Shown: positions 664-31,684 of the stretch, in pieces
Numbering within the stretch: the first letter of the stretch is position 1
How the letters are laid out: each line of letters opens with the position of its first letter
Origin: a virus
Taxonomy: Duplodnaviria > Caudoviricetes
Strand: one strand, 5' to 3'
DNA length: 32,326 bases
Virus record (IMG/VR): IMGVR_UViG_3300029318_000050
Span: 1-32,326 of that record
Made by a program: the position numbers and the translations under genes
The notes under the pieces: generated by a model
What the model saw: the letters and a program-made list of their open reading frames with translations, nothing else
Told to the model about the DNA's origin: nothing
Database searches by the model: none

Positions 664-719
664 CAGATGGTGCGATGATAGGAGAAAATATATCAGGGAG
701 AGAACCACCGCACCACATG
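664..719 (-). ncRNA. Candidate structured RNA hairpin displaying anti-Shine-Dalgarno tracts
   Basis: Outer stem 668-677/706-715 is fully paired on the minus strand with one G-U. Inner stem UGAUA/UAUCA, loop UAUUUUCUCC, bulge UUCUCUCCC. Confidence 0.45.
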
Positions 720-723
720 AGCA

Positions 724-1203
724 TTATATATTTCTTTCTTTATGTTCAACAATGTTTTTGCACCACCAATATAGTTGTGCATCGTTCAATGTTGATTTCA
801 TAAAATTAACAGTACGACATACCAATTGGATATTGCCAACCACATAACCTTTATCAGAATCTTTACGATCTATCGAACAAGCATAATCTGTACTACCACC
901 ACCACGATGCCATGTCATATTCACACCTGACAAATTGCATTTACCTTCTTGAATGTCCCATAATTTAAATATGTAATCCAACTCTATATCCCATTCGATA
1001 TCCGACTTTCTTCTGCTGGATTTAAGTTGTGTATATAAAAGATTTAGATAGGTATATGGTGTTTGATTTTTGGCTTTAACTCTTTTCTCTTGAGTACAGG
1101 TTCTACATTCTGTCCTAGAATAATCGCCCTTGGTATTGCTTCCTTGCTCGAACATATCTGCTGATAAGGTTCGTAAGCAATAACTACATTTCTTCTTGCC
1201 CAT
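724..1203 (-). CDS. Zinc-finger HNH-like endonuclease
   Basis: N-terminal CSYC...CRTC. C-terminal QEGKCNLSG...SIDRKDSDKGYVVGNIQLVCRTVNFMK, a His-Me finger nuclease pattern. Confidence 0.75.
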   Translation of the reverse strand: MGKKKCSYCLRTLSADMFEQGSNTKGDYSRTECRTCTQEKRVKAKNQTPYTYLNLLYTQLKSSRRKSDIEWDIELDYIFKLWDIQEGKCNLSGVNMTWHRGGGSTDYACSIDRKDSDKGYVVGNIQLVCRTVNFMKSTLNDAQLYWWCKNIVEHKERNI

Positions 1204-1812: not shown

Positions 1813-2226
1813 TTAAGACCAATTTATATTTTCATCTAGTAATTCAGCAGTTCCATTTTCATTTATATATCTTGTTTTTATTTTGATTTCTTGTTTACCA
1901 AAATTGATTAAAACAATTTCATGACAATTTAAAACTTCTAAATATTTTAGAATTTGTTTTTCTTCTCTAGCATTTTCAGTAACTTTAAATTCGCAAACTA
2001 TTGGCTTGTCGTAGTCTAAATATAAAATTAAATCAGGTCTTATAGTTGTCAAAGTTTCATTTTTATAATAAACAACATAGCTTTTTTGTCTTTGAAAACT
2101 TATTTTTCTTAAATTACATTCCATACAAAAAGCAGTTTCAAATACACTTTCCGACATACCGAATGGTGTATGTGTAATTACTTCTTTTACAATATCAACA
2201 ATTATACTTTTACTTTCTTCATTCAT
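1813..2226 (-). CDS. GxxExxY-family PD-(D/E)XK nuclease-like protein
   Basis: GMSESVFE (variant GxxExxY), RQK...VYYK, RPDLIL, VCEFK, QILKYL, LINFG. Confidence 0.8.
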   Translation of the reverse strand: MNEESKSIIVDIVKEVITHTPFGMSESVFETAFCMECNLRKISFQRQKSYVVYYKNETLTTIRPDLILYLDYDKPIVCEFKVTENAREEKQILKYLEVLNCHEIVLINFGKQEIKIKTRYINENGTAELLDENINWS

Positions 2227-4052
2227 TAAAATATCTCCGAATTGTATTCATTAGTTTGATAACCTTTGCCTTTCTCATAAGTTAAAACTTCTTGATCTAC
2301 TAATTTTCTTAGCCAAGTTTTTACTGTTGAATCATTTAGTTTAGTCAATCTTGTTATCTCTGCTTGACCTAACCATACTGTTGCTGGTTCGTCTGCTTTA
2401 TCCTGAACAGTTCTAATTGCATCAATAATTGTTTGTCCTTTTTCAGATACTTTGGTTTTCTTAGGCATATCACCAGCATCAATAATCTCTAATGCACCTG
2501 ATGTCATGTCGTGGAATGGTAGTTTCTGTTCTATAAATTTGAAGTTTTTTGGCATTACAGGCTTACCATCTTTGACTAATGTTTGGCTAAACTCGACAAA
2601 CATATCGCTACCAAGATTAGTTCTTGCTACTCGATATTCCCAATCTACAGATGCTTGTATTACAGAACTTCCTCTTGCCCTAGATGATGTGCCATGCCCT
2701 GTGTGATGCACAATGCAAATGCAAGTAGAATACGAATCTCTAAGATCATCAATTCTTTCGATAAATGCTGACATATCTTCTGTAGAGTTTTCATTACCAG
2801 CACCAAAGTTTCTTTGCAAAGTATCAACGACAATCATTCTGACTTTGCCTGATTCATCTTGTGTTCTGTCAATTGTGTCTTTTAATAATTGATGGTCTTT
2901 ATCGTCTAATAATCTTGCACCCCTTGTAGATATTAATAATGGTGCATCTTTAACTCTTGTTGCATTTAACTGTTGCCATGCCAAGAATCGTCTTGAAATG
3001 GCTCTCATACCCTCACCAGCTAAATAAACAACCGCACCCTGTTCTGTTTCGTGTCCATGCCAATCACGACCTAAAACGATATTACAAGCTAAATCTACTG
3101 TTACAAATGATTTACCACTTTTAGCTTGTCCAAAAATAGCTACAACAGAATCTTCTTCACATATATCTTTGACCACCCATTTAGGCGGTGTGATGTTCTG
3201 CATGATGTCATTAACCTGAATTAGATCAAAAGAAACTCTTTTTTTGATTTGATTATTCAAACAATAATCCAAGAACTGTTGTGATGATGTAAAGAAGTCA
3301 TTTACCTTTGCATCATATAAATCATCTTTATCTTTAAACTCTCTTGGCGGCTTTACAATGATTACTTCTGTAGCTATCTGACTAAGTTTCTCTTTTAGTT
3401 CTTCAGAACATTTTTTACCAGCTTCATCATTATCAGGAAAAATAATAACCTTTCTATCTTTTAATGGTGTCCAATCTTGTTTGTCTAAATTATTAACACC
3501 ACCATGCCATGTACAAACATCGCCATCGTATATGCTTTTACAACCTAATAAGGCTTTTTCTCCTTCATTGATAACCACATAATCTTCAGGCTTTTGATTC
3601 TCACAATAAATAGGCAAGATGCCATCAGGTCTTTTCATTACCCATTGATCTTTGATCTTAGTAAATGGTGCGTATTTTTGTTTTATGTAATGTTCGTTAG
3701 GAAACCGCATTACACAAAAAGAATCAGAATAACGCAGATATACGACAGACTCAGTTTTAAGCTGGTACATATCTTTATCGTTAAATGTTCTTGTAGGCTT
3801 TGTTGGTGTTTGTGTATCTATAGGTTTGTATTCTTTTAAAAAATCATCAGGATTAAGACCACGATTCTTAATAAATTCTATGAGTCCATAACCTTGATTA
3901 TTTTCAAAGTCAAAGAAAGTTCCTTGTTCTAAATTTAAACAAAGACTCCCTTTGCTTCCCCACCGATAGTAAGAGCCATCCTTTTTAGATGGCTCTCCTA
4001 ATATTTGCACCGCTATCTCAGGTGCGATTTTCTCCCAATCTAATTCCATCAA
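2226..4052 (-). CDS. DNA primase-helicase (Toprim + RepA/AAA_25 helicase + C-terminal wHTH)
   Basis: Toprim motifs INEGEKA, FPDNDEAG, DDLYD. Walker A GQAKSGKS, Walker B IVVDT, then HHTG and ARGSS. Confidence 0.9.
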   Translation of the reverse strand: MMELDWEKIAPEIAVQILGEPSKKDGSYYRWGSKGSLCLNLEQGTFFDFENNQGYGLIEFIKNRGLNPDDFLKEYKPIDTQTPTKPTRTFNDKDMYQLKTESVVYLRYSDSFCVMRFPNEHYIKQKYAPFTKIKDQWVMKRPDGILPIYCENQKPEDYVVINEGEKALLGCKSIYDGDVCTWHGGVNNLDKQDWTPLKDRKVIIFPDNDEAGKKCSEELKEKLSQIATEVIIVKPPREFKDKDDLYDAKVNDFFTSSQQFLDYCLNNQIKKRVSFDLIQVNDIMQNITPPKWVVKDICEEDSVVAIFGQAKSGKSFVTVDLACNIVLGRDWHGHETEQGAVVYLAGEGMRAISRRFLAWQQLNATRVKDAPLLISTRGARLLDDKDHQLLKDTIDRTQDESGKVRMIVVDTLQRNFGAGNENSTEDMSAFIERIDDLRDSYSTCICIVHHTGHGTSSRARGSSVIQASVDWEYRVARTNLGSDMFVEFSQTLVKDGKPVMPKNFKFIEQKLPFHDMTSGALEIIDAGDMPKKTKVSEKGQTIIDAIRTVQDKADEPATVWLGQAEITRLTKLNDSTVKTWLRKLVDQEVLTYEKGKGYQTNEYNSEIF

Positions 4053-4055
4053 TCA

Positions 4056-4706
4056 TTAAAATGGAATATCACCTGAATCCAATGTATCCAATACAGGATG
4101 TGATTCTTTGGTGTCACCATCTGACGTAGGGAGAAAATTATCATGTTGGCTATTGCCATTTTGATTGTCAGATGGTGACTCGCTATACCAATCAGGTATA
4201 ACAAATTCTGCTGGTCTATCTTTCATCCCAACAAATTCAAAGTGTGGAATTGATGTAGCACCTTTTCCAATTGAAATACTTTCAGAACCTGTGTATTTGA
4301 CTACAGGCAATTTACCTTCATTCTCAGGCTTTTGTGTTTCTGCATAGAAACTAGCACCCATTTCTTGAAAACCTTTGTATTCACCGAATGAATGTCTTTG
4401 CCATAAAGAAACAGGATGTTCGATATTATTAGAACCTTCTACAAATTTAGGCAGTACCCAAACTGAAAAGGCTTTTTTATATTCTTCGTCAGGTCTTGCT
4501 ACATTATCAAATAAATCTTTACCCCAAATGTAGCTAAATCCTTCACCTGATGTATATTTACCCCAACCCATAAGCATAGTAGCTGGATCAATCATAAAAT
4601 AGTTTGCATCTATTCTTTCTTTGCCACGATACCAGCACTTCTCTTGAAAGTGATGTTTTAAATATGGCGTGTCTTCTGAATCAAAAACAAATGGATTATC
4701 TGTCAT
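4056..4706 (-). CDS. Probable single-stranded DNA-binding protein
   Basis: Acidic disordered tail ending DIPF (SSB C-terminal motif), aromatic beta-rich core, directly upstream of the primase-helicase, AAGGAG RBS. Confidence 0.7.
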   Translation of the reverse strand: MTDNPFVFDSEDTPYLKHHFQEKCWYRGKERIDANYFMIDPATMLMGWGKYTSGEGFSYIWGKDLFDNVARPDEEYKKAFSVWVLPKFVEGSNNIEHPVSLWQRHSFGEYKGFQEMGASFYAETQKPENEGKLPVVKYTGSESISIGKGATSIPHFEFVGMKDRPAEFVIPDWYSESPSDNQNGNSQHDNFLPTSDGDTKESHPVLDTLDSGDIPF

Positions 4707-5016: not shown

Positions 5017-5346
5017 CTAACCAAATAATTTACTTTTTACAGGTGACCATGTTACTTTTTTACCACCAGCAATTTCATCAACAATCCTACTTATGTCAGA
5101 TATATCATTTTTAAGGATTTTAAAAGTCAATCTCCAACCTTTTCCTGCTGGTAATGCAAGTTCACGACTGACATAAGTTTGTGTCAAAAAAAACAATAAT
5201 GCTTTTTTTGTTGGCTCGTCATTGAAATAACCATCAACAAATTTATTATCTTCAACGTGCTTACCTTGTGCAATAATTTTACAAATACTTTTTTGAATAG
5301 TCTTGTACAGAACTTGCTGGTTTGGATGTCTTTTTTTGTTAGTCAT
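5017..5346 (-). CDS. Hypothetical protein (109 aa), cargo of cassette A
   Basis: Has its own repeated promoter/RBS and terminator. Confidence 0.85.
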   Translation of the reverse strand: MTNKKRHPNQQVLYKTIQKSICKIIAQGKHVEDNKFVDGYFNDEPTKKALLFFLTQTYVSRELALPAGKGWRLTFKILKNDISDISRIVDEIAGGKKVTWSPVKSKLFG

Positions 5347-5412
5347 AATTTTCTCCTTGTTAATTAAAATTATATTGTAAAGATAGCAAATTCACAGAAA
5401 ATTACAACTATT
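5343..5412 (-). promoter_or_regulatory. Repeated promoter + RBS element, copy A
   Basis: 66/70 identical to 10279-10348. TTGTAA...TGcTATCTT/TATAAT...AAGGAGAAAATTATG. Confidence 0.9.
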
Positions 5413-5483
5413 ATTTGCAAAATATATAAAAAAAAATTTTATAAAACTATTGCGATTTTTTTATTAATAGTTTTAAATGTCTT

Positions 5484-5514
5484 TTGTAATTATCAATAAA
5501 GGAGAAAATTATGA
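5484..5514 (+). repeat. 31-bp leader/RBS repeat identical to 10680-10710
   Basis: ttgtaattatcaataaaggagaaaattatga, exact duplicate. Confidence 0.9.
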
Positions 5515-5708
5515 AATTTACGACAGCAGAACTTCAAGTATTATCCAATCTTGTGGACATTAATCTTACAGGTATCGGTGATGAAGCATTAGCAGAAGAA
5601 ATCAAAAGTGATTTTGGTTATTTTAAATTAAAATCTGTTAAACAGGCTTGGAGTATATCCGACAAAATTAACGAGCAACTATCAAAACAACTAAGGAGAA
5701 AATTATGA
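5511..5708 (+). CDS. Hypothetical early protein (65 aa)
   Basis: Strong AAGGAG RBS. First gene of the rightward operon. Confidence 0.8.
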   Translation: MKFTTAELQVLSNLVDINLTGIGDEALAEEIKSDFGYFKLKSVKQAWSISDKINEQLSKQLRRKL

Positions 5709-6439: not shown

Positions 6440-6681
6440 TAAATCACTTAAGTCACTATGGTTCTTTTATTTATACTGTACCAGCCGAATTTACTAAAAA
6501 AGAACTAAAAGAATTGCATAAAAGCGTTTTGTTTCATTATGAAGCCGAACAAAGATATATTGGCAAACGCTATATGGGAAAATATTACAGTTCAAAAAAT
6601 GCTGATTTGCATATTAAAAAAAGTAAATTGCTTAAAACAATTTTAGAAAAAATAGAACGCATGCAAAAAGAAAAAAAATGA
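6436..6681 (+). CDS. Hypothetical protein (81 aa)
   Basis: AAGGAGAAAA RBS, ATGA overlap. Confidence 0.8.
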   Translation: MINHLSHYGSFIYTVPAEFTKKELKELHKSVLFHYEAEQRYIGKRYMGKYYSSKNADLHIKKSKLLKTILEKIERMQKEKK

Positions 6682-8617: not shown

Positions 8618-8885
8618 AAGAACCTTTAGCAATGCAGTCAGAATGCCATATCAGGATGCCATAGGTATAATATTGAAAGTTATTGATTATCACAATGAAC
8701 AAGCTAGGAAGGATTTTGGCAACCATCAATTCCATAGCAAACAAGCAACAGTTTTAAAACTCTGGCTCATTGATCTAAAAGAATTTATCATTAAGCATGA
8801 AAAAAAAGAATCCCTATCAGTACAAACAACCAAAGAAGAAACAGGGAGAGAAAAAGTTTTATCAAAGTTTGATGAAAATGTATAA
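8604..8885 (+). CDS. Hypothetical protein (~93 aa; start MAKVKR preferred)
   Basis: The shorter start gives a normal small overlap. Operon position. Confidence 0.7.
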   Translation: MAKVKRTFSNAVRMPYQDAIGIILKVIDYHNEQARKDFGNHQFHSKQATVLKLWLIDLKEFIIKHEKKESLSVQTTKEETGREKVLSKFDENV

Positions 8886-9892: not shown

Positions 9893-9899
9893 GTTTTTG

Positions 9900-9963
9900 T
9901 TGCAATAGTTGTAAATATTATTAATATAATAATCATAATTTACAAAAAAGGAGAAAATTATGA
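9900..9963 (+). promoter_or_regulatory. Second-family repeated promoter + RBS
   Basis: 9900-9931 is 28/32 identical to 10647-10678. Ends in AAGGAGAAAATTATG. Confidence 0.75.
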
Positions 9964-10187
9964 CTGAGAAATATAGAAAAGGTAATGATGCTAAAAAGCT
10001 AGGTGCTCTTAATGCAGTTAATTTACTTAAAGATAGCTTGAAAAATTACCAAGAAGCACAAAAAAGAAACTCAAGAGCAAAAGATGGTAATTATAAATCT
10101 CTTGACCTTAAGTATTTGGCTGATGCTCTTAGAGGAGTGGAACAACAAGTACAAAGTGACAATTACTATGATGAAGGAGGTGCTTAA
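9960..10187 (+). CDS. Hypothetical protein (75 aa)
   Basis: Has its own promoter/RBS and terminator. Confidence 0.8.
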   Translation: MTEKYRKGNDAKKLGALNAVNLLKDSLKNYQEAQKRNSRAKDGNYKSLDLKYLADALRGVEQQVQSDNYYDEGGA

Positions 10188-10224: not shown

Positions 10225-10262
10225 AAGAGAGTCAGATAGAAATATTTGGCTCTCTTTTTTTA
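10225..10262 (+). terminator. Rho-independent terminator
   Basis: AAGAGAGTCAGATA-gaaa-TATTTGGCTCTCTT followed by a T run. Confidence 0.85.
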
Positions 10263-10278
10263 TGTAAATAAATAAAAC

Positions 10279-10348
10279 AATAGTTGTAATTCTCTGTCAG
10301 TTTGCTATATTTACAATATAATTTTAATTAACAAGGAGAAAATTATGA
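10279..10348 (+). promoter_or_regulatory. Repeated promoter + RBS element, copy B
   Basis: Near-identical to 5343-5412 (minus strand) and 29536-29606. Confidence 0.9.
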
Positions 10349-10624: not shown

Positions 10625-10646
10625 ATGTAGATCAATAAGATAATTG

Positions 10647-10710
10647 TTGCAATTGTTGTAAAAATCATTAACATAATAGTTGTAATTATCAATAAAGGAG
10701 AAAATTATGA
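10647..10710 (+). promoter_or_regulatory. Second-family repeated promoter + RBS
   Basis: The 5' part matches 9900-9931. The 3' 31 bp are identical to 5484-5514. Confidence 0.8.
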
Positions 10711-11636
10711 CTAAATTATTTGATGGTATAGCAGAAGCAGATTTTATTACAGGTGATAAATCTGATACTTCTTCTATTAGAGAAGTCAATTATCTTGAAC
10801 AGGCAAAGCCTTTTTCAAGTTCTAAAAAAACAGATAAGCCTTTTAAGTGTGAAGCTTGTAATGGTTCAGGTATCTGGAAAAAATCTTATCACTATGCTAC
10901 AGGTGAAGTTAAGACTTTTGAAAATACTTGTTATAAATGCAAAGGTTCAGGCGGTTTTATGACTTCTGCTGAAGATAGACAAAAAGCTAAAATCGACAGA
11001 AAGAAAAAAAGACGTGCTGAAGAAAACGCTAACTTTGATTCATTTGCCAAAGAACACAAAGAAGTTTGCATTTATATTTTAGAGAATACTTGTGACATGG
11101 CTCGTAAGTATGATGATTGGAATAAATTTATGACCGACCTTGCTGAGAAAATTCGCAAGTATGGTGAGTTATCTGATAAGCAAATTGCAGTTGTTGAGAA
11201 AGCTATACAAAGACAAAAGGATTGGGAAGCTAAAAAAAATCAACCTACTGCAAATATCAACATATCAGTTGTTAGAGATAAACTTCTGCTTGGCAAAGAA
11301 ACTTGGAAAAGACCTGTACTAAGAGCAGGTGATACTTTCAAATTTACTTTAGCACCTGAAACAAGTAAAAATGCTGGTTGTGTTTATGTCAAACACCATG
11401 ACACTTACATAGGCAAGATTGACCAAAAAAATGATTTCTTTGGCTATAAGACTACAAAAGAGCAAATAACTTACCTAAAAGAATTTGCTAAAGATCCTTT
11501 GAAAGAATTAAAGGCTTTTGGTTCTAATACAGGAAACTGTGGTTTTTGTGGTAGAGCCTTAACTAAAAAAGAATCATATACAGTTGGCTATGGTCCTGTG
11601 TGTGCTGAGAAATTTAACTTACCTTATGGAGAATAA
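10707..11636 (+). CDS. DnaJ-type zinc-finger + DUF6011-like protein
   Basis: CEACNGSG and CYKCKGSG repeats. C-terminal CGFCGRALT..ES...GYGPVCA. Confidence 0.75.
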   Translation: MTKLFDGIAEADFITGDKSDTSSIREVNYLEQAKPFSSSKKTDKPFKCEACNGSGIWKKSYHYATGEVKTFENTCYKCKGSGGFMTSAEDRQKAKIDRKKKRRAEENANFDSFAKEHKEVCIYILENTCDMARKYDDWNKFMTDLAEKIRKYGELSDKQIAVVEKAIQRQKDWEAKKNQPTANINISVVRDKLLLGKETWKRPVLRAGDTFKFTLAPETSKNAGCVYVKHHDTYIGKIDQKNDFFGYKTTKEQITYLKEFAKDPLKELKAFGSNTGNCGFCGRALTKKESYTVGYGPVCAEKFNLPYGE

Positions 11637-24690: not shown

Positions 24691-24708
24691 TTTGCTTTCC
24701 TTGTTTTT

Positions 24709-29442: not shown

Positions 29443-29535
29443 ACTTTAAATACAAAAATTTCTTCTAAAAAGATAGAATTAAAAAGCATTTTATCATTAA
29501 AAGATAAATAAAATTAATTTAATTTATTTGCAAAT

Positions 29536-29606
29536 AATAGTTGTAAATCTCTGTGGATTTGCTATATTTACAATATAATTTTAATTAAACAAGGAGAAAA
29601 TTATGA
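29536..29606 (+). promoter_or_regulatory. Repeated promoter + RBS element, copy C
   Basis: 4 substitutions and 1 insertion relative to copy B. Confidence 0.9.
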
Positions 29607-29815
29607 AAAAATCAAGATTAGACAATGAAACAGTAATGTTTGAATCAGAAGAAATGAACATTATATTTTACAAGGGCATAGAGATTTGGAAGCAAAAAGC
29701 TATGGAAAATCACATAGTAGTATGTAGCTTTCAAAAGGATGGTGTTTCTTTCAACAATCCTAGAACTAATTCTTTGCAAGATGCAAAAGACTTTATTAAT
29801 GATTATTTGATATAG
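29603..29815 (+). CDS. Hypothetical protein (70 aa), moron cargo of cassette C
   Basis: Antisense insertion in the head operon with its own promoter and terminator. Confidence 0.85.
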   Translation: MKKSRLDNETVMFESEEMNIIFYKGIEIWKQKAMENHIVVCSFQKDGVSFNNPRTNSLQDAKDFINDYLI

Positions 29816-29825
29816 AAAAAATCTG

Positions 29826-29859
29826 AAAAAGAAGCCACCTAATTAGGTGGCTTTTTTTT
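29826..29859. terminator. Bidirectional rho-independent terminator, cassette C / terL
   Basis: AAAAAGAAGCCACCT-aatt-AGGTGGC-T8, with U-rich tails on both strands. Confidence 0.88.
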
Positions 29860-31684
29860 ACCAATCATTTACCCAAGTATTTCTTCTTCTGCGATTGATT
29901 AGATTCTTTCTTTTCTCTTGTTTTGGTTGTGCTTGTTCAGATTCGCTTTTGGTTTTTATTTTATTAAGATTTGGAGAAAGAATATAAAATCCAGCTAAAG
30001 CATAAACAAAATTATCAAGACTTTCATTCCTTTCACGTGTCTGTTTCCAAACCAATTTCTTTTGTCCGCGATGAAACTTAATGATTCTTTTTTCTGCTGT
30101 AAGTTGTTTAAAATATTCTTCATCAACTGTACTTGGGAAATGTATATATCCAGCTTGATCTTCTTCTGCTACATTCAACCAACTAAACAAAGTGTCTTTA
30201 GCAGTATCAGTTCCGATTGGATAAAGACTAACTCTTTGTCTGCCTGATTGTGTTGGTCTATTAGCAATTGGTTTTCCACTTATGCTTTGACCTTTGACAG
30301 CAAATACCCTTCTGCCTTGTCTTTGTTTTACAAAGCCATAAACACTTTGAGTTGCATAACCTGAATCAATACAGGTAATTGCTATTTTTAATTTCTGATT
30401 ATTTTCTTTAGTGAAGGATGATAATAAATATTCATCTAATTCTTTCCACACTTCTAATTGGTTAGGATCCCCCCAAAAGATTTTGTATTCAATTACATAT
30501 ACTTGATTATCTGCTGACCATCCAACAACTTGTGCTTCTAATCGGTCTGATTGGCAGTCAATTCCGCAACTGAGAACTAAAACATTTTCAGGAATGGTTT
30601 CATGGTCATAGTTTTCTCTACGACTCAGCAAACTATCGGATTCTATTTCTTCGCCTTTTTCTGCAAAACATTCGCCTAATGATGTATTAACCCAAACTCT
30701 TAATTGTTCAGGATTATTTTTAGCAACTAAAAATGATTCGACTACTTCTTTCCATGTTCGCCATGATGAATACAATTCATTTAGATGGAAACCAGCAACA
30801 TTACTTTTATTGCCTTCTTGAATCCATTTACCATTTTGCATCATGTAAGGTTTATCGGATTCATCAATAAGAACTCCACAACTTTTACAAACATAATTTA
30901 CATTTTTTAAATCTTCATCCCATTTGATGTTTGACCATTCTAAATGTTGGTAAGTATTACAATGCGGACAAGGCACATGATACTTTCTTTGGTCTGATGT
31001 ATTCCAAGCATCTTGAATTCTACTCATGCCATCTATGGTTGGTGTTGATGTCATTATGATTTTACGATTCCAAAAAGTAGAAGTTCTTTTTCTTGCTAAA
31101 TCTACAGGATCGCCTTCAGGAGTTGGTTGGTATCTATCAACCTCGTCTAACAAAACAATCCTACATGGTCTTGATGATAATGATGCTGGAGAATTACTTC
31201 CTGAAATAACTACAAAACCACCACCAAATGATTTAGATAATATCGTGTTGCCACTATCTCTGCTTTTGGAATCTTTAACTTTACCTCTTAAAGCATCAGA
31301 GGCAGTAATCATTTTAGATAATCTTTGTGTAGAAAAGGCTCTTGCCATTTCTAGTGTTGGCATAACTACCAACATTGGTGCTGGATCGTGGGCTATATGA
31401 TAGCCAAGTATGTTTAGAAGTATTTCTGTCTTGCCAACTTGAGCAGATGACATGATAACAATGCTTTCAATATCTCTGTCATTTAGTGTGTCCATGATGC
31501 CACGCTGATATTCAGCACGACTTGTTTTCCATTGACCAGCTTCCGCACTAGATTCAGATGTTAAGACTCTATGATTATCTGCCCATTCAGAAACTTTAAG
31601 TTTCTTTGGTGGCTTGAACGTCTGTATCGACTGATTCCAAATTATTCTCAGAGTTTTTTGGAAGTCCTGTGTTTGCGAGTTCAT
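29858..31684 (-). CDS. terL: Terminase large subunit, lambda GpA family
   Basis: SEWAD, SAQVGKTE, LLDEVDRY, STPT, CPHC/CKSC, GIDCQSDRLE, IDSG, RNESLD. Confidence 0.97.
   Translation of the reverse strand: MNSQTQDFQKTLRIIWNQSIQTFKPPKKLKVSEWADNHRVLTSESSAEAGQWKTSRAEYQRGIMDTLNDRDIESIVIMSSAQVGKTEILLNILGYHIAHDPAPMLVVMPTLEMARAFSTQRLSKMITASDALRGKVKDSKSRDSGNTILSKSFGGGFVVISGSNSPASLSSRPCRIVLLDEVDRYQPTPEGDPVDLARKRTSTFWNRKIIMTSTPTIDGMSRIQDAWNTSDQRKYHVPCPHCNTYQHLEWSNIKWDEDLKNVNYVCKSCGVLIDESDKPYMMQNGKWIQEGNKSNVAGFHLNELYSSWRTWKEVVESFLVAKNNPEQLRVWVNTSLGECFAEKGEEIESDSLLSRRENYDHETIPENVLVLSCGIDCQSDRLEAQVVGWSADNQVYVIEYKIFWGDPNQLEVWKELDEYLLSSFTKENNQKLKIAITCIDSGYATQSVYGFVKQRQGRRVFAVKGQSISGKPIANRPTQSGRQRVSLYPIGTDTAKDTLFSWLNVAEEDQAGYIHFPSTVDEEYFKQLTAEKRIIKFHRGQKKLVWKQTRERNESLDNFVYALAGFYILSPNLNKIKTKSESEQAQPKQEKRKNLINRRRRNTWVNDW

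Follow-up and report, generated by a model that had tools for sequence, protein, structure and literature searches.

Genome organization and the E1 hairpin

The DNA analysed here (the window) covers a complete 32,326-base virus record with 33% G+C, from an uncultured marine phage whose PHROG matches point to a lambda-like siphophage. The terminase, portal, capsid, tail and lysis genes occupy the minus strand from 32261 to 11874, and small genes of no assigned function, mostly on the plus strand, lie between 5511 and 11636. The minus-strand segment from 4935 to 51 carries an SSB-like gene of 216 aa (4056–4706), a Toprim + AAA_25 primase-helicase (2226–4049), a PD-(D/E)XK nuclease, an endonuclease VII/HNH-like gene (724–1203) and a gpZ-like minor tail gene (51–659; phrog_1924, E 8.7e-30). 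The SSB-like protein has no family match; its designation rests on a DIPF tail and on ssDNA-binding genes annotated at the same place in Roseobacter phages. Downstream from the genes of the primase operon, an AT-rich gap (1690–1813) with opposed TTTGGTT and AACCAAA repeats is a candidate replication origin. No tRNA or tmRNA was found in the window. The closest cultured phages infect Roseobacter (portal 46–47% identical, same layout), and a host search of genome contigs gave one match, a 32-kb contig in a Flavobacteriaceae MAG that is possibly a binned virus. Throughout, early, middle and late denote classes assigned from gene layout.

Contigs of many relatives (L001–L005 among them) stop about 50 nt past the gpZ stop codon, at a place equivalent to positions 1–50 of the window. 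This suggests a fixed, cos-like genome end and, because of it, gpZ is likely to be the first gene of the late transcript after circularisation.

The E1 hairpin (667–716, minus strand) sits in the 64-bp gap, 660–723, that separates the endonuclease VII/HNH-like gene from gpZ, with the sequence and coordinates given in the original prediction. It consists of a 13-pair stem (716–704 with 679–667) closing an open 24-nt loop (703–680). Minimum free energy and centroid structures agree on this single stem and leave both pyrimidine tracts of the loop about 0.9 unpaired, much as first described. The two-tier hairpin originally drawn, with an inner UGAUA/UAUCA helix, did not hold: folding does not predict the helix, and L163, L184 and L165, among other relatives, do not retain it. 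When positions 640–740 were folded, the minus strand gave −23.7 kcal/mol (z −3.39) and the plus strand −16.8 (z −0.82), in keeping with the strand initially proposed; folded alone, positions 664–719 beat shuffled sequences on both strands (z −4.52 and −3.99).

The E1 loop is complementary to the leaders of early genes

The 15-mer AAGGAGAAAATTATG occurs seven times in the window, in each case at one of the starts that had been listed as sharing an identical leader: start 5346 on the minus strand (leader 5344–5358) and, on the plus strand, starts 5511 (5499–5513), 5705 (5693–5707), 9960 (9948–9962), 10345 (10333–10347), 10707 (10695–10709) and 29603 (29591–29605). The leader at 5705 is operon-internal and lies outside the promoter repeats, while that at 29603 belongs to a cassette inserted antisense in the head operon. 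Since six of the leaders are part of repeated promoter cassettes, their sameness alone proves little. The 3′ tract of the E1 loop (680–689, minus strand) is the exact 10-nt complement of AGGAGAAAAU in the early leader; as stated at the outset, AGGAGAAAAT is found at exactly those seven leaders plus 680–689. Eight exact 10-nt complements of the E1 loop exist in the genome, seven of them being the early leaders. By way of background, a 10-nt leader complement is present in 21 of 21,172 windows of the same length elsewhere in the genome, and in 849 of 200,000 shuffled versions of the loop. The 5′ pyrimidine tract (694–703, minus strand) is without a conserved exact partner, having one 10-nt match at 8842 on the plus strand that is also found in L014.

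The early cassettes themselves are repeated at 5343–5436, 9897–9965, 10255–10348, 10644–10712 and 29505–29588, are 83–91% alike and share the motif AATAGTTGTAA, a possible operator or −35 region. The last is part of an early-type unit (29505–29860: promoter repeat, 70-aa gene and terminator) lying antisense between terL and a head-tail gene.

Usage of Shine-Dalgarno (SD) sequences differs between the layout-based classes: GGAG is present at 13 of the 19 early starts, at 3 of the 6 middle ones and at 2 of the 24 late ones, and GAGG at none of the early or middle starts (0/19 and 0/6) and at 7 of the 24 late ones. Duplexes with E1 were more stable at early starts (median −12.2 versus −5.8 kcal/mol at late starts, p 0.0002, two late starts being placed a few bases off). 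A generic 16S tail likewise pairs better with early starts (p 0.002), so that part of the early/late gap reflects SD strength. One late start, 24483, scores like the early ones (−14.0 and −16.2 kcal/mol).

A second hairpin within the SSB-like gene

When the genome was scanned for long stems that close CUCC loops, the window gave two matches, E1 and a hairpin that the original prediction had missed. This hairpin, E2 (4113–4179, minus strand), has a perfect 13-pair stem and a 41-nt loop, and lies in the stretch coding for the acidic tail of the SSB-like protein. Its tract (4130–4141, minus strand) is the exact 12-nt complement of GGAGAAAAUUAU, which spans the SD, the spacer and the first two bases of the AUG; it uses the rare leucine codon CTC (19/810). 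With both strands of the genome considered, the E2 loop has exact 12-nt complements at the seven leaders and nowhere else, and none of 21,048 background windows holds such a match. The complementarity of both hairpins reaches beyond the SD core into the spacer and, for E2, into the start codon. Six of the seven leaders being on the opposite strand, any pairing of these with the hairpins must be in trans; the seventh, on the minus strand, lies upstream of E1 behind its own terminator. Another 13-pair stem, with a short purine-rich loop, is found at 24708 on the plus strand, close to where the capsid genes end.

Conservation of the hairpins in related phages

E1 was surveyed in 186 sequences (185 loci plus the window, some contigs having been fetched twice), 184 of which have a gpZ homologue. 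A TATAAT hexamer, a stem and a UCUCC tract are found just before gpZ in 44 of the 184, amounting to 33 unique sequences. The tract is absent from this position in the 140 others, in many of which the upstream gene abuts gpZ. A broader pattern scan of viral contigs found the stem in 21 of 105 new loci, all belonging to clade A or L165 and adding no new clade; a pattern for clade B gave five loci, including one new true copy (L203) and two chance matches. A tie between E1 and the HNH gene, of the HEARO/OMEGA type, was ruled out: clade B lacks the endonuclease gene at this place and has E1 after an unrelated upstream gene.

The stems are wholly different between lineages L004, L005, L031, L032, L121, L165 and L183, and the loop is kept. 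To measure covariation, 16 of the 33 unique sequences, picked outside clade B to span different stems, were aligned with plain MAFFT. In this alignment 91% of cells pair and both sides change in 9 of 11 pairs. No shuffle out of 500 scored as high, a test that relatedness inflates, and slid controls gave at most 3 pairs. The stem covariation anticipated in the original prediction was thus borne out. In L004, an extra small 5′ hairpin precedes E1, and the 3′ CUCCU tract is drawn into the stem opposite the element's own AGGAG.

Read on the gene strand, 17 unique E1 stems, chosen without regard to their stems and scored in a way that treats both mismatch types alike, contain 192 Watson-Crick pairs, 10 G-U and no A-C. 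This bias agrees with the initial claim that the transcribed strand carries the structure. It also bears on the notion that the hairpins act as DNA or from the plus strand, be it as a protein site, a single-stranded signal for replication or packaging, a CsrA-type GGA hairpin or the decayed ribosome binding site (RBS) of a lost cassette gene. Origins often lie at the SSB/primase locus, where E2 is located, and in the window the plus-strand fold of E2 is no weaker than the minus-strand one (−36.1 versus −30.6); the E2 family shows 36 G-U and 4 A-C pairs, a count not used as strand evidence since the finder allowed G-U only. Moreover, G-T wobble in DNA would likewise favour one strand, and the plus strand of 664–719 also folds above shuffles. 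Against this, no ATG follows the plus-strand AGGAGAAAAT at 680–689, compensatory stems would have been lost from a decayed RBS, the 1690–1813 gap is a better origin candidate, and bases complementary to an AUG at the right spacing serve nothing in DNA. Together with the absence of A-C pairs and the position of the TATAAT box (see below), these points make a DNA-level or plus-strand role very unlikely, including the decayed RBS and the CsrA-type hairpin that the original prediction had held in reserve. We regard E1 as a genuine and conserved RNA element, apparently not yet catalogued, with a specific and in part co-evolving complement in the early leaders.

For E2-type hairpins, loci with enough flank, out of 130 with a primase match, yielded 51 unique top stems and 2 blanks, and 47 of the 51 stems have CUCC or CCCC in the loop. 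They lie either 55–135 nt before the primase start or, in distant relatives, inside the primase gene, 229–262 nt from its start in a variable linker, so that relatives devoid of E1 still have a hairpin of this build. In clade B the E2 loop is mostly without the tract. Four cultured Roseobacter phages showed no clear copy of E1 or E2, and have ordinary terminators between SSB and primase. In one cultured Roseobacter phage, CRP-406, two minus-strand hairpins are possible distant counterparts. One, before 29037, is a weak stem with a UCCUCCCU loop that precedes the minor tail gene; the other, at 6535, lies between genes and closes a UUUUCUCCCAG loop with an 11-pair stem. No matching leader class was found in that phage.

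Probable expression of E1 as a leader of the late transcript

The TATAAT sequence (723–728, minus strand), a likely −10 box with a predicted start at 716, overlaps the stop codon of the upstream gene. It is kept in all 44 loci having the tract, behind a last sense codon that is ATA, TTA or GTA (Ile, Leu or Val) in two unrelated upstream genes. The first base of the E1 stem is the seventh after the hexamer in the window, L031, L032 and L004, and the sixth in L165. The promoter scan of the window does not list the site. With a weak −35 region and a predicted start base that varies over the 33 unique sequences (G 12, T 12, A 9), a promoter before E1 is considered only likely.

The absence of a U-tract on its 3′ side, and of E1 from the terminator list, ruled out an intrinsic terminator. 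Lacking this tract, E1 is probably a 57-nt 5′ leader at the head of the late (gpZ) transcript rather than an independent small RNA. For the same reason, and because E2 lies in a translated frame, release of either hairpin would need a processing step. Contigs of two RNA runs cover 95–649 and 637–1292, the latter from a relative; as transcript ends and strand are not readable from contigs, they count neither for nor against expression of E1.

Correlated changes in loops and leaders

If the loops were directed at early leaders, the two should change together. In clade A, the loop has an A after the U-run and the corresponding next base of the leader is U in 27 cases versus C in 8 (11 genomes or loci), whereas in clade B the loop has a G and the leader base is U in 6 and C in 15 (5 genomes or loci). 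The contrast has a Fisher p of 0.0006, overstated since it represents a single evolutionary event; the two clades make up a naturally occurring compensatory pair. GGAG is also found at two late genes of clade B. Loops of the distant clade carry the tract UAAUUACUCC, and in 5 of the 9 loci looked at, the first early gene begins with GGAGUAAUUA opposite to it; block means in this clade are 5.07 versus 4.87 nt. G006 combines a CCCCC sub-loop with AGGGGGA starts.

Matches of each loop to leaders of its own genome were compared with those to other genomes in 22 genomes or loci at three lineage cut-offs. The own-genome excess was 0.81, 0.86 and 0.46 nt with 6, 9 and 13 lineages, respectively (permutation p 0.013, 0.005 and 0.053). 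The own loop came out best in just 2 of the 9 lineages; in three, namely L037, G008/L064/L078 and G007/L030/L033, leaders of the own genome were matched no better than those of others. The early-leader comparison covered lineages other than L031, L032, L165/G001, L004 and L015; from the loops of L031, L032 and L165, one would expect leader spacers resembling GGAGAGAAGG or GGAGAAAAUC. Hence the expectation that the loop tracks the early RBS of each genome held for clades A and B and failed in several distant lineages that are without a match. Judged on these comparisons, the co-change of loop and leader is a real but uneven signal.

The lineages without a genome-specific match, and the generic CUCC and CCCC tracts in the E2-type family, are what one would expect of broad anti-SD decoys aimed mainly at host mRNAs, causing host shut-off and affecting early phage genes as a by-product. 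Bacterial small RNAs whose anti-SD loops have many targets are described in PMC4615179. Yet the spacer-specific matches of 10–12 nt and the clade A/B change indicate phage leaders, and we give host decoys only a slim chance.

A site near the primase start and possible regulation in cis

A sequence near the primase start, GGGAGAAAAU (4027–4036, minus strand), could pair with E2 over 10 nt in cis, and is also a possible 9-nt target of E1. It is found at primase position +16 in 15 of 17 clade-A variants of E2. This raises the possibility of cis switches acting on their own transcripts: by folding over the region where the primase gene starts, E2 would couple primase translation to that of SSB, and E1 would gate the translation, stability or read-through of gpZ and the late transcript, its loop possibly sensing early mRNAs. 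In several members of clade A, duplex energies at the primase site equal or exceed those at the early leader (−19.1 versus −15.3 in L169; −13.0 versus −7.4 in L004), and the third C of the E2 tract suits GGG better than AGG. In the distant L153 and L154, the loop matches a site upstream of the primase gene itself. As for E1, its stem ends 7 nt before the SD-less gpZ start, and late transcription has to cross a two-way terminator-like hairpin near 29832–29855; the terminator of the 29505–29860 cassette being U-rich on the late strand too, this passage may need read-through. However, L184/G002 has lost the primase site and its early leader pairs better (−17.5 versus −9.3), and this site is absent from clade B and the distant clade. 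Furthermore, E1 has no conserved downstream cis partner in the variants compared (a set without the E1 row of L004), and a purely cis mechanism leaves unexplained why the A/B change follows leaders on the opposite strand, unless the loop senses them. We regard the cis account, taken for both hairpins jointly, as unlikely, less so than host decoys or a DNA-level role; trans and cis uses may coexist.

A model for the repression of early translation

The reading that we favour, with a probability of roughly 0.57, is that, from the onset of middle and late transcription, the loops of E1 and E2 would base-pair in trans with early mRNAs and prevent their translation. E2 would be produced along with the SSB and primase mRNA, and E1 would open the late transcript as its 5′ leader. 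In each case the stem would keep the tract open and protect the RNA, and the 10–12 pairs formed across SD, spacer and AUG would exclude the 30S subunit. Most late genes, having a GAGG-type SD or none, would escape. The hairpins might be cut out of the mRNAs, and we propose that pairing serves repression rather than sensing. Of the anti-RBS RNA originally envisaged, the covariation, the strand and the A/B tracking stand; the drawn fold does not, and a free small RNA has become less probable than a 5′ leader.

A broader formulation is more tentative, with odds that we place just short of even. It holds that this family of marine siphophages has an RNA-only early-to-late switch, in which early genes would carry a private tag in their RBS-spacer region and two anti-tag hairpins, co-evolving with the tag, would shut them down in two steps. 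One hairpin would be concealed where a replication gene codes for a linker, and the other would head the late transcript.

Relationship to known systems

The C4 RNA of P1/P7 and the CI RNA of P4 are structured phage RNAs that act on phage mRNA through short exposed tracts, and E1 and E2 share this predicted design. C4 is a cloverleaf of several stems, processed by RNase P, with targets downstream in its own immunity operon. E1, in contrast, is a single stem with a large loop, and its candidate targets form an RBS class in other transcription units, six of seven on the opposite strand. The Rfam search by which the original prediction might have been linked to a family matched none in the window and gave no gathering-level match in 10 related loci. 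Of the 13 matches that the window gave at E values up to 5, none is to the C4 family (RF01695, listed in PMC2864571).

Closer in build are the Cuckoo, CcsR and ar14 (NfeR1) small RNAs of Alphaproteobacteria, in which a conserved anti-SD loop is likewise borne on variable stems. Cuckoo RNAs are stand-alone bacterial sRNAs with two to four adjacent hairpins carrying CCUCCUCCC (PMC4615179). The phage elements fall outside this definition, with one hairpin per site and UUUUCUCC or UUACUCC tracts; they have single long stems and spacer-specific tracts, and lie inside a phage leader and coding linkers. By their sequences, E1 and E2 would thus be base-pairing anti-SD RNAs of a known kind, in an unusual role and place.

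On the target side, the closest known feature is the start-associated sequence of Cluster K mycobacteriophages (PMC3203893, accessible text), an extended conserved RBS confined to non-structural genes and exceeding what 16S pairing requires. That text leaves open whether the partner is RNA or protein and identifies no partner RNA. The leader studied here is a different 15-mer that does not match the 13-bp consensus, from a different host group, and a candidate partner RNA is present in the same genome. If the model is correct, it offers a candidate answer to the question left by PMC3203893, namely why some phages standardise non-structural RBSs beyond the needs of 16S pairing.

In T4, the endoribonuclease RegB picks early mRNAs by a GGAG SD with an A-rich stretch, and its cutting has been proposed to free ribosomes for the transition from early to later expression (PMC3014915). 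A GGAG SD with an A-rich tail is similarly enriched in the early genes of this phage (13/19 versus 2/24 late, classes by layout). RegB acts as a protein nuclease and depends on ribosomal protein S1 (PMC3014915), whereas the reader proposed here is an RNA loop, which, if real, would be a nuclease-free counterpart of RegB. No RegB family member was found among the PHROG matches of the 50 proteins, many small early proteins having no match at all.

Other phage RNAs that act by base-pairing include sar, OOP, aQ, PreS and VpdS. In the accessible text of the 2025 review PMC12197685, each of them either opposes a single gene as an antisense RNA or has its targets in the host, and none reads the shared RBS of a whole temporal class; nor does that text name an RNA of the present kind. 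No description of such a phage RNA was found in the titles and abstract openings screened, a coverage that mostly excludes subscription papers. The motif gave no match in four supplement files of PMC10690425, although it may still be among the candidates there. Should the model hold, regulatory RNAs can be hidden in linker-coding parts of replication genes, where intergenic screens miss them.

L108 (near 293–304) and L113 (near 1125–1136) have a further copy of the anti-leader tract. It is in the sense orientation, roughly 140 nt ahead of the first early gene and at the end of the late operon, and could mask the start of that gene in read-through transcripts.
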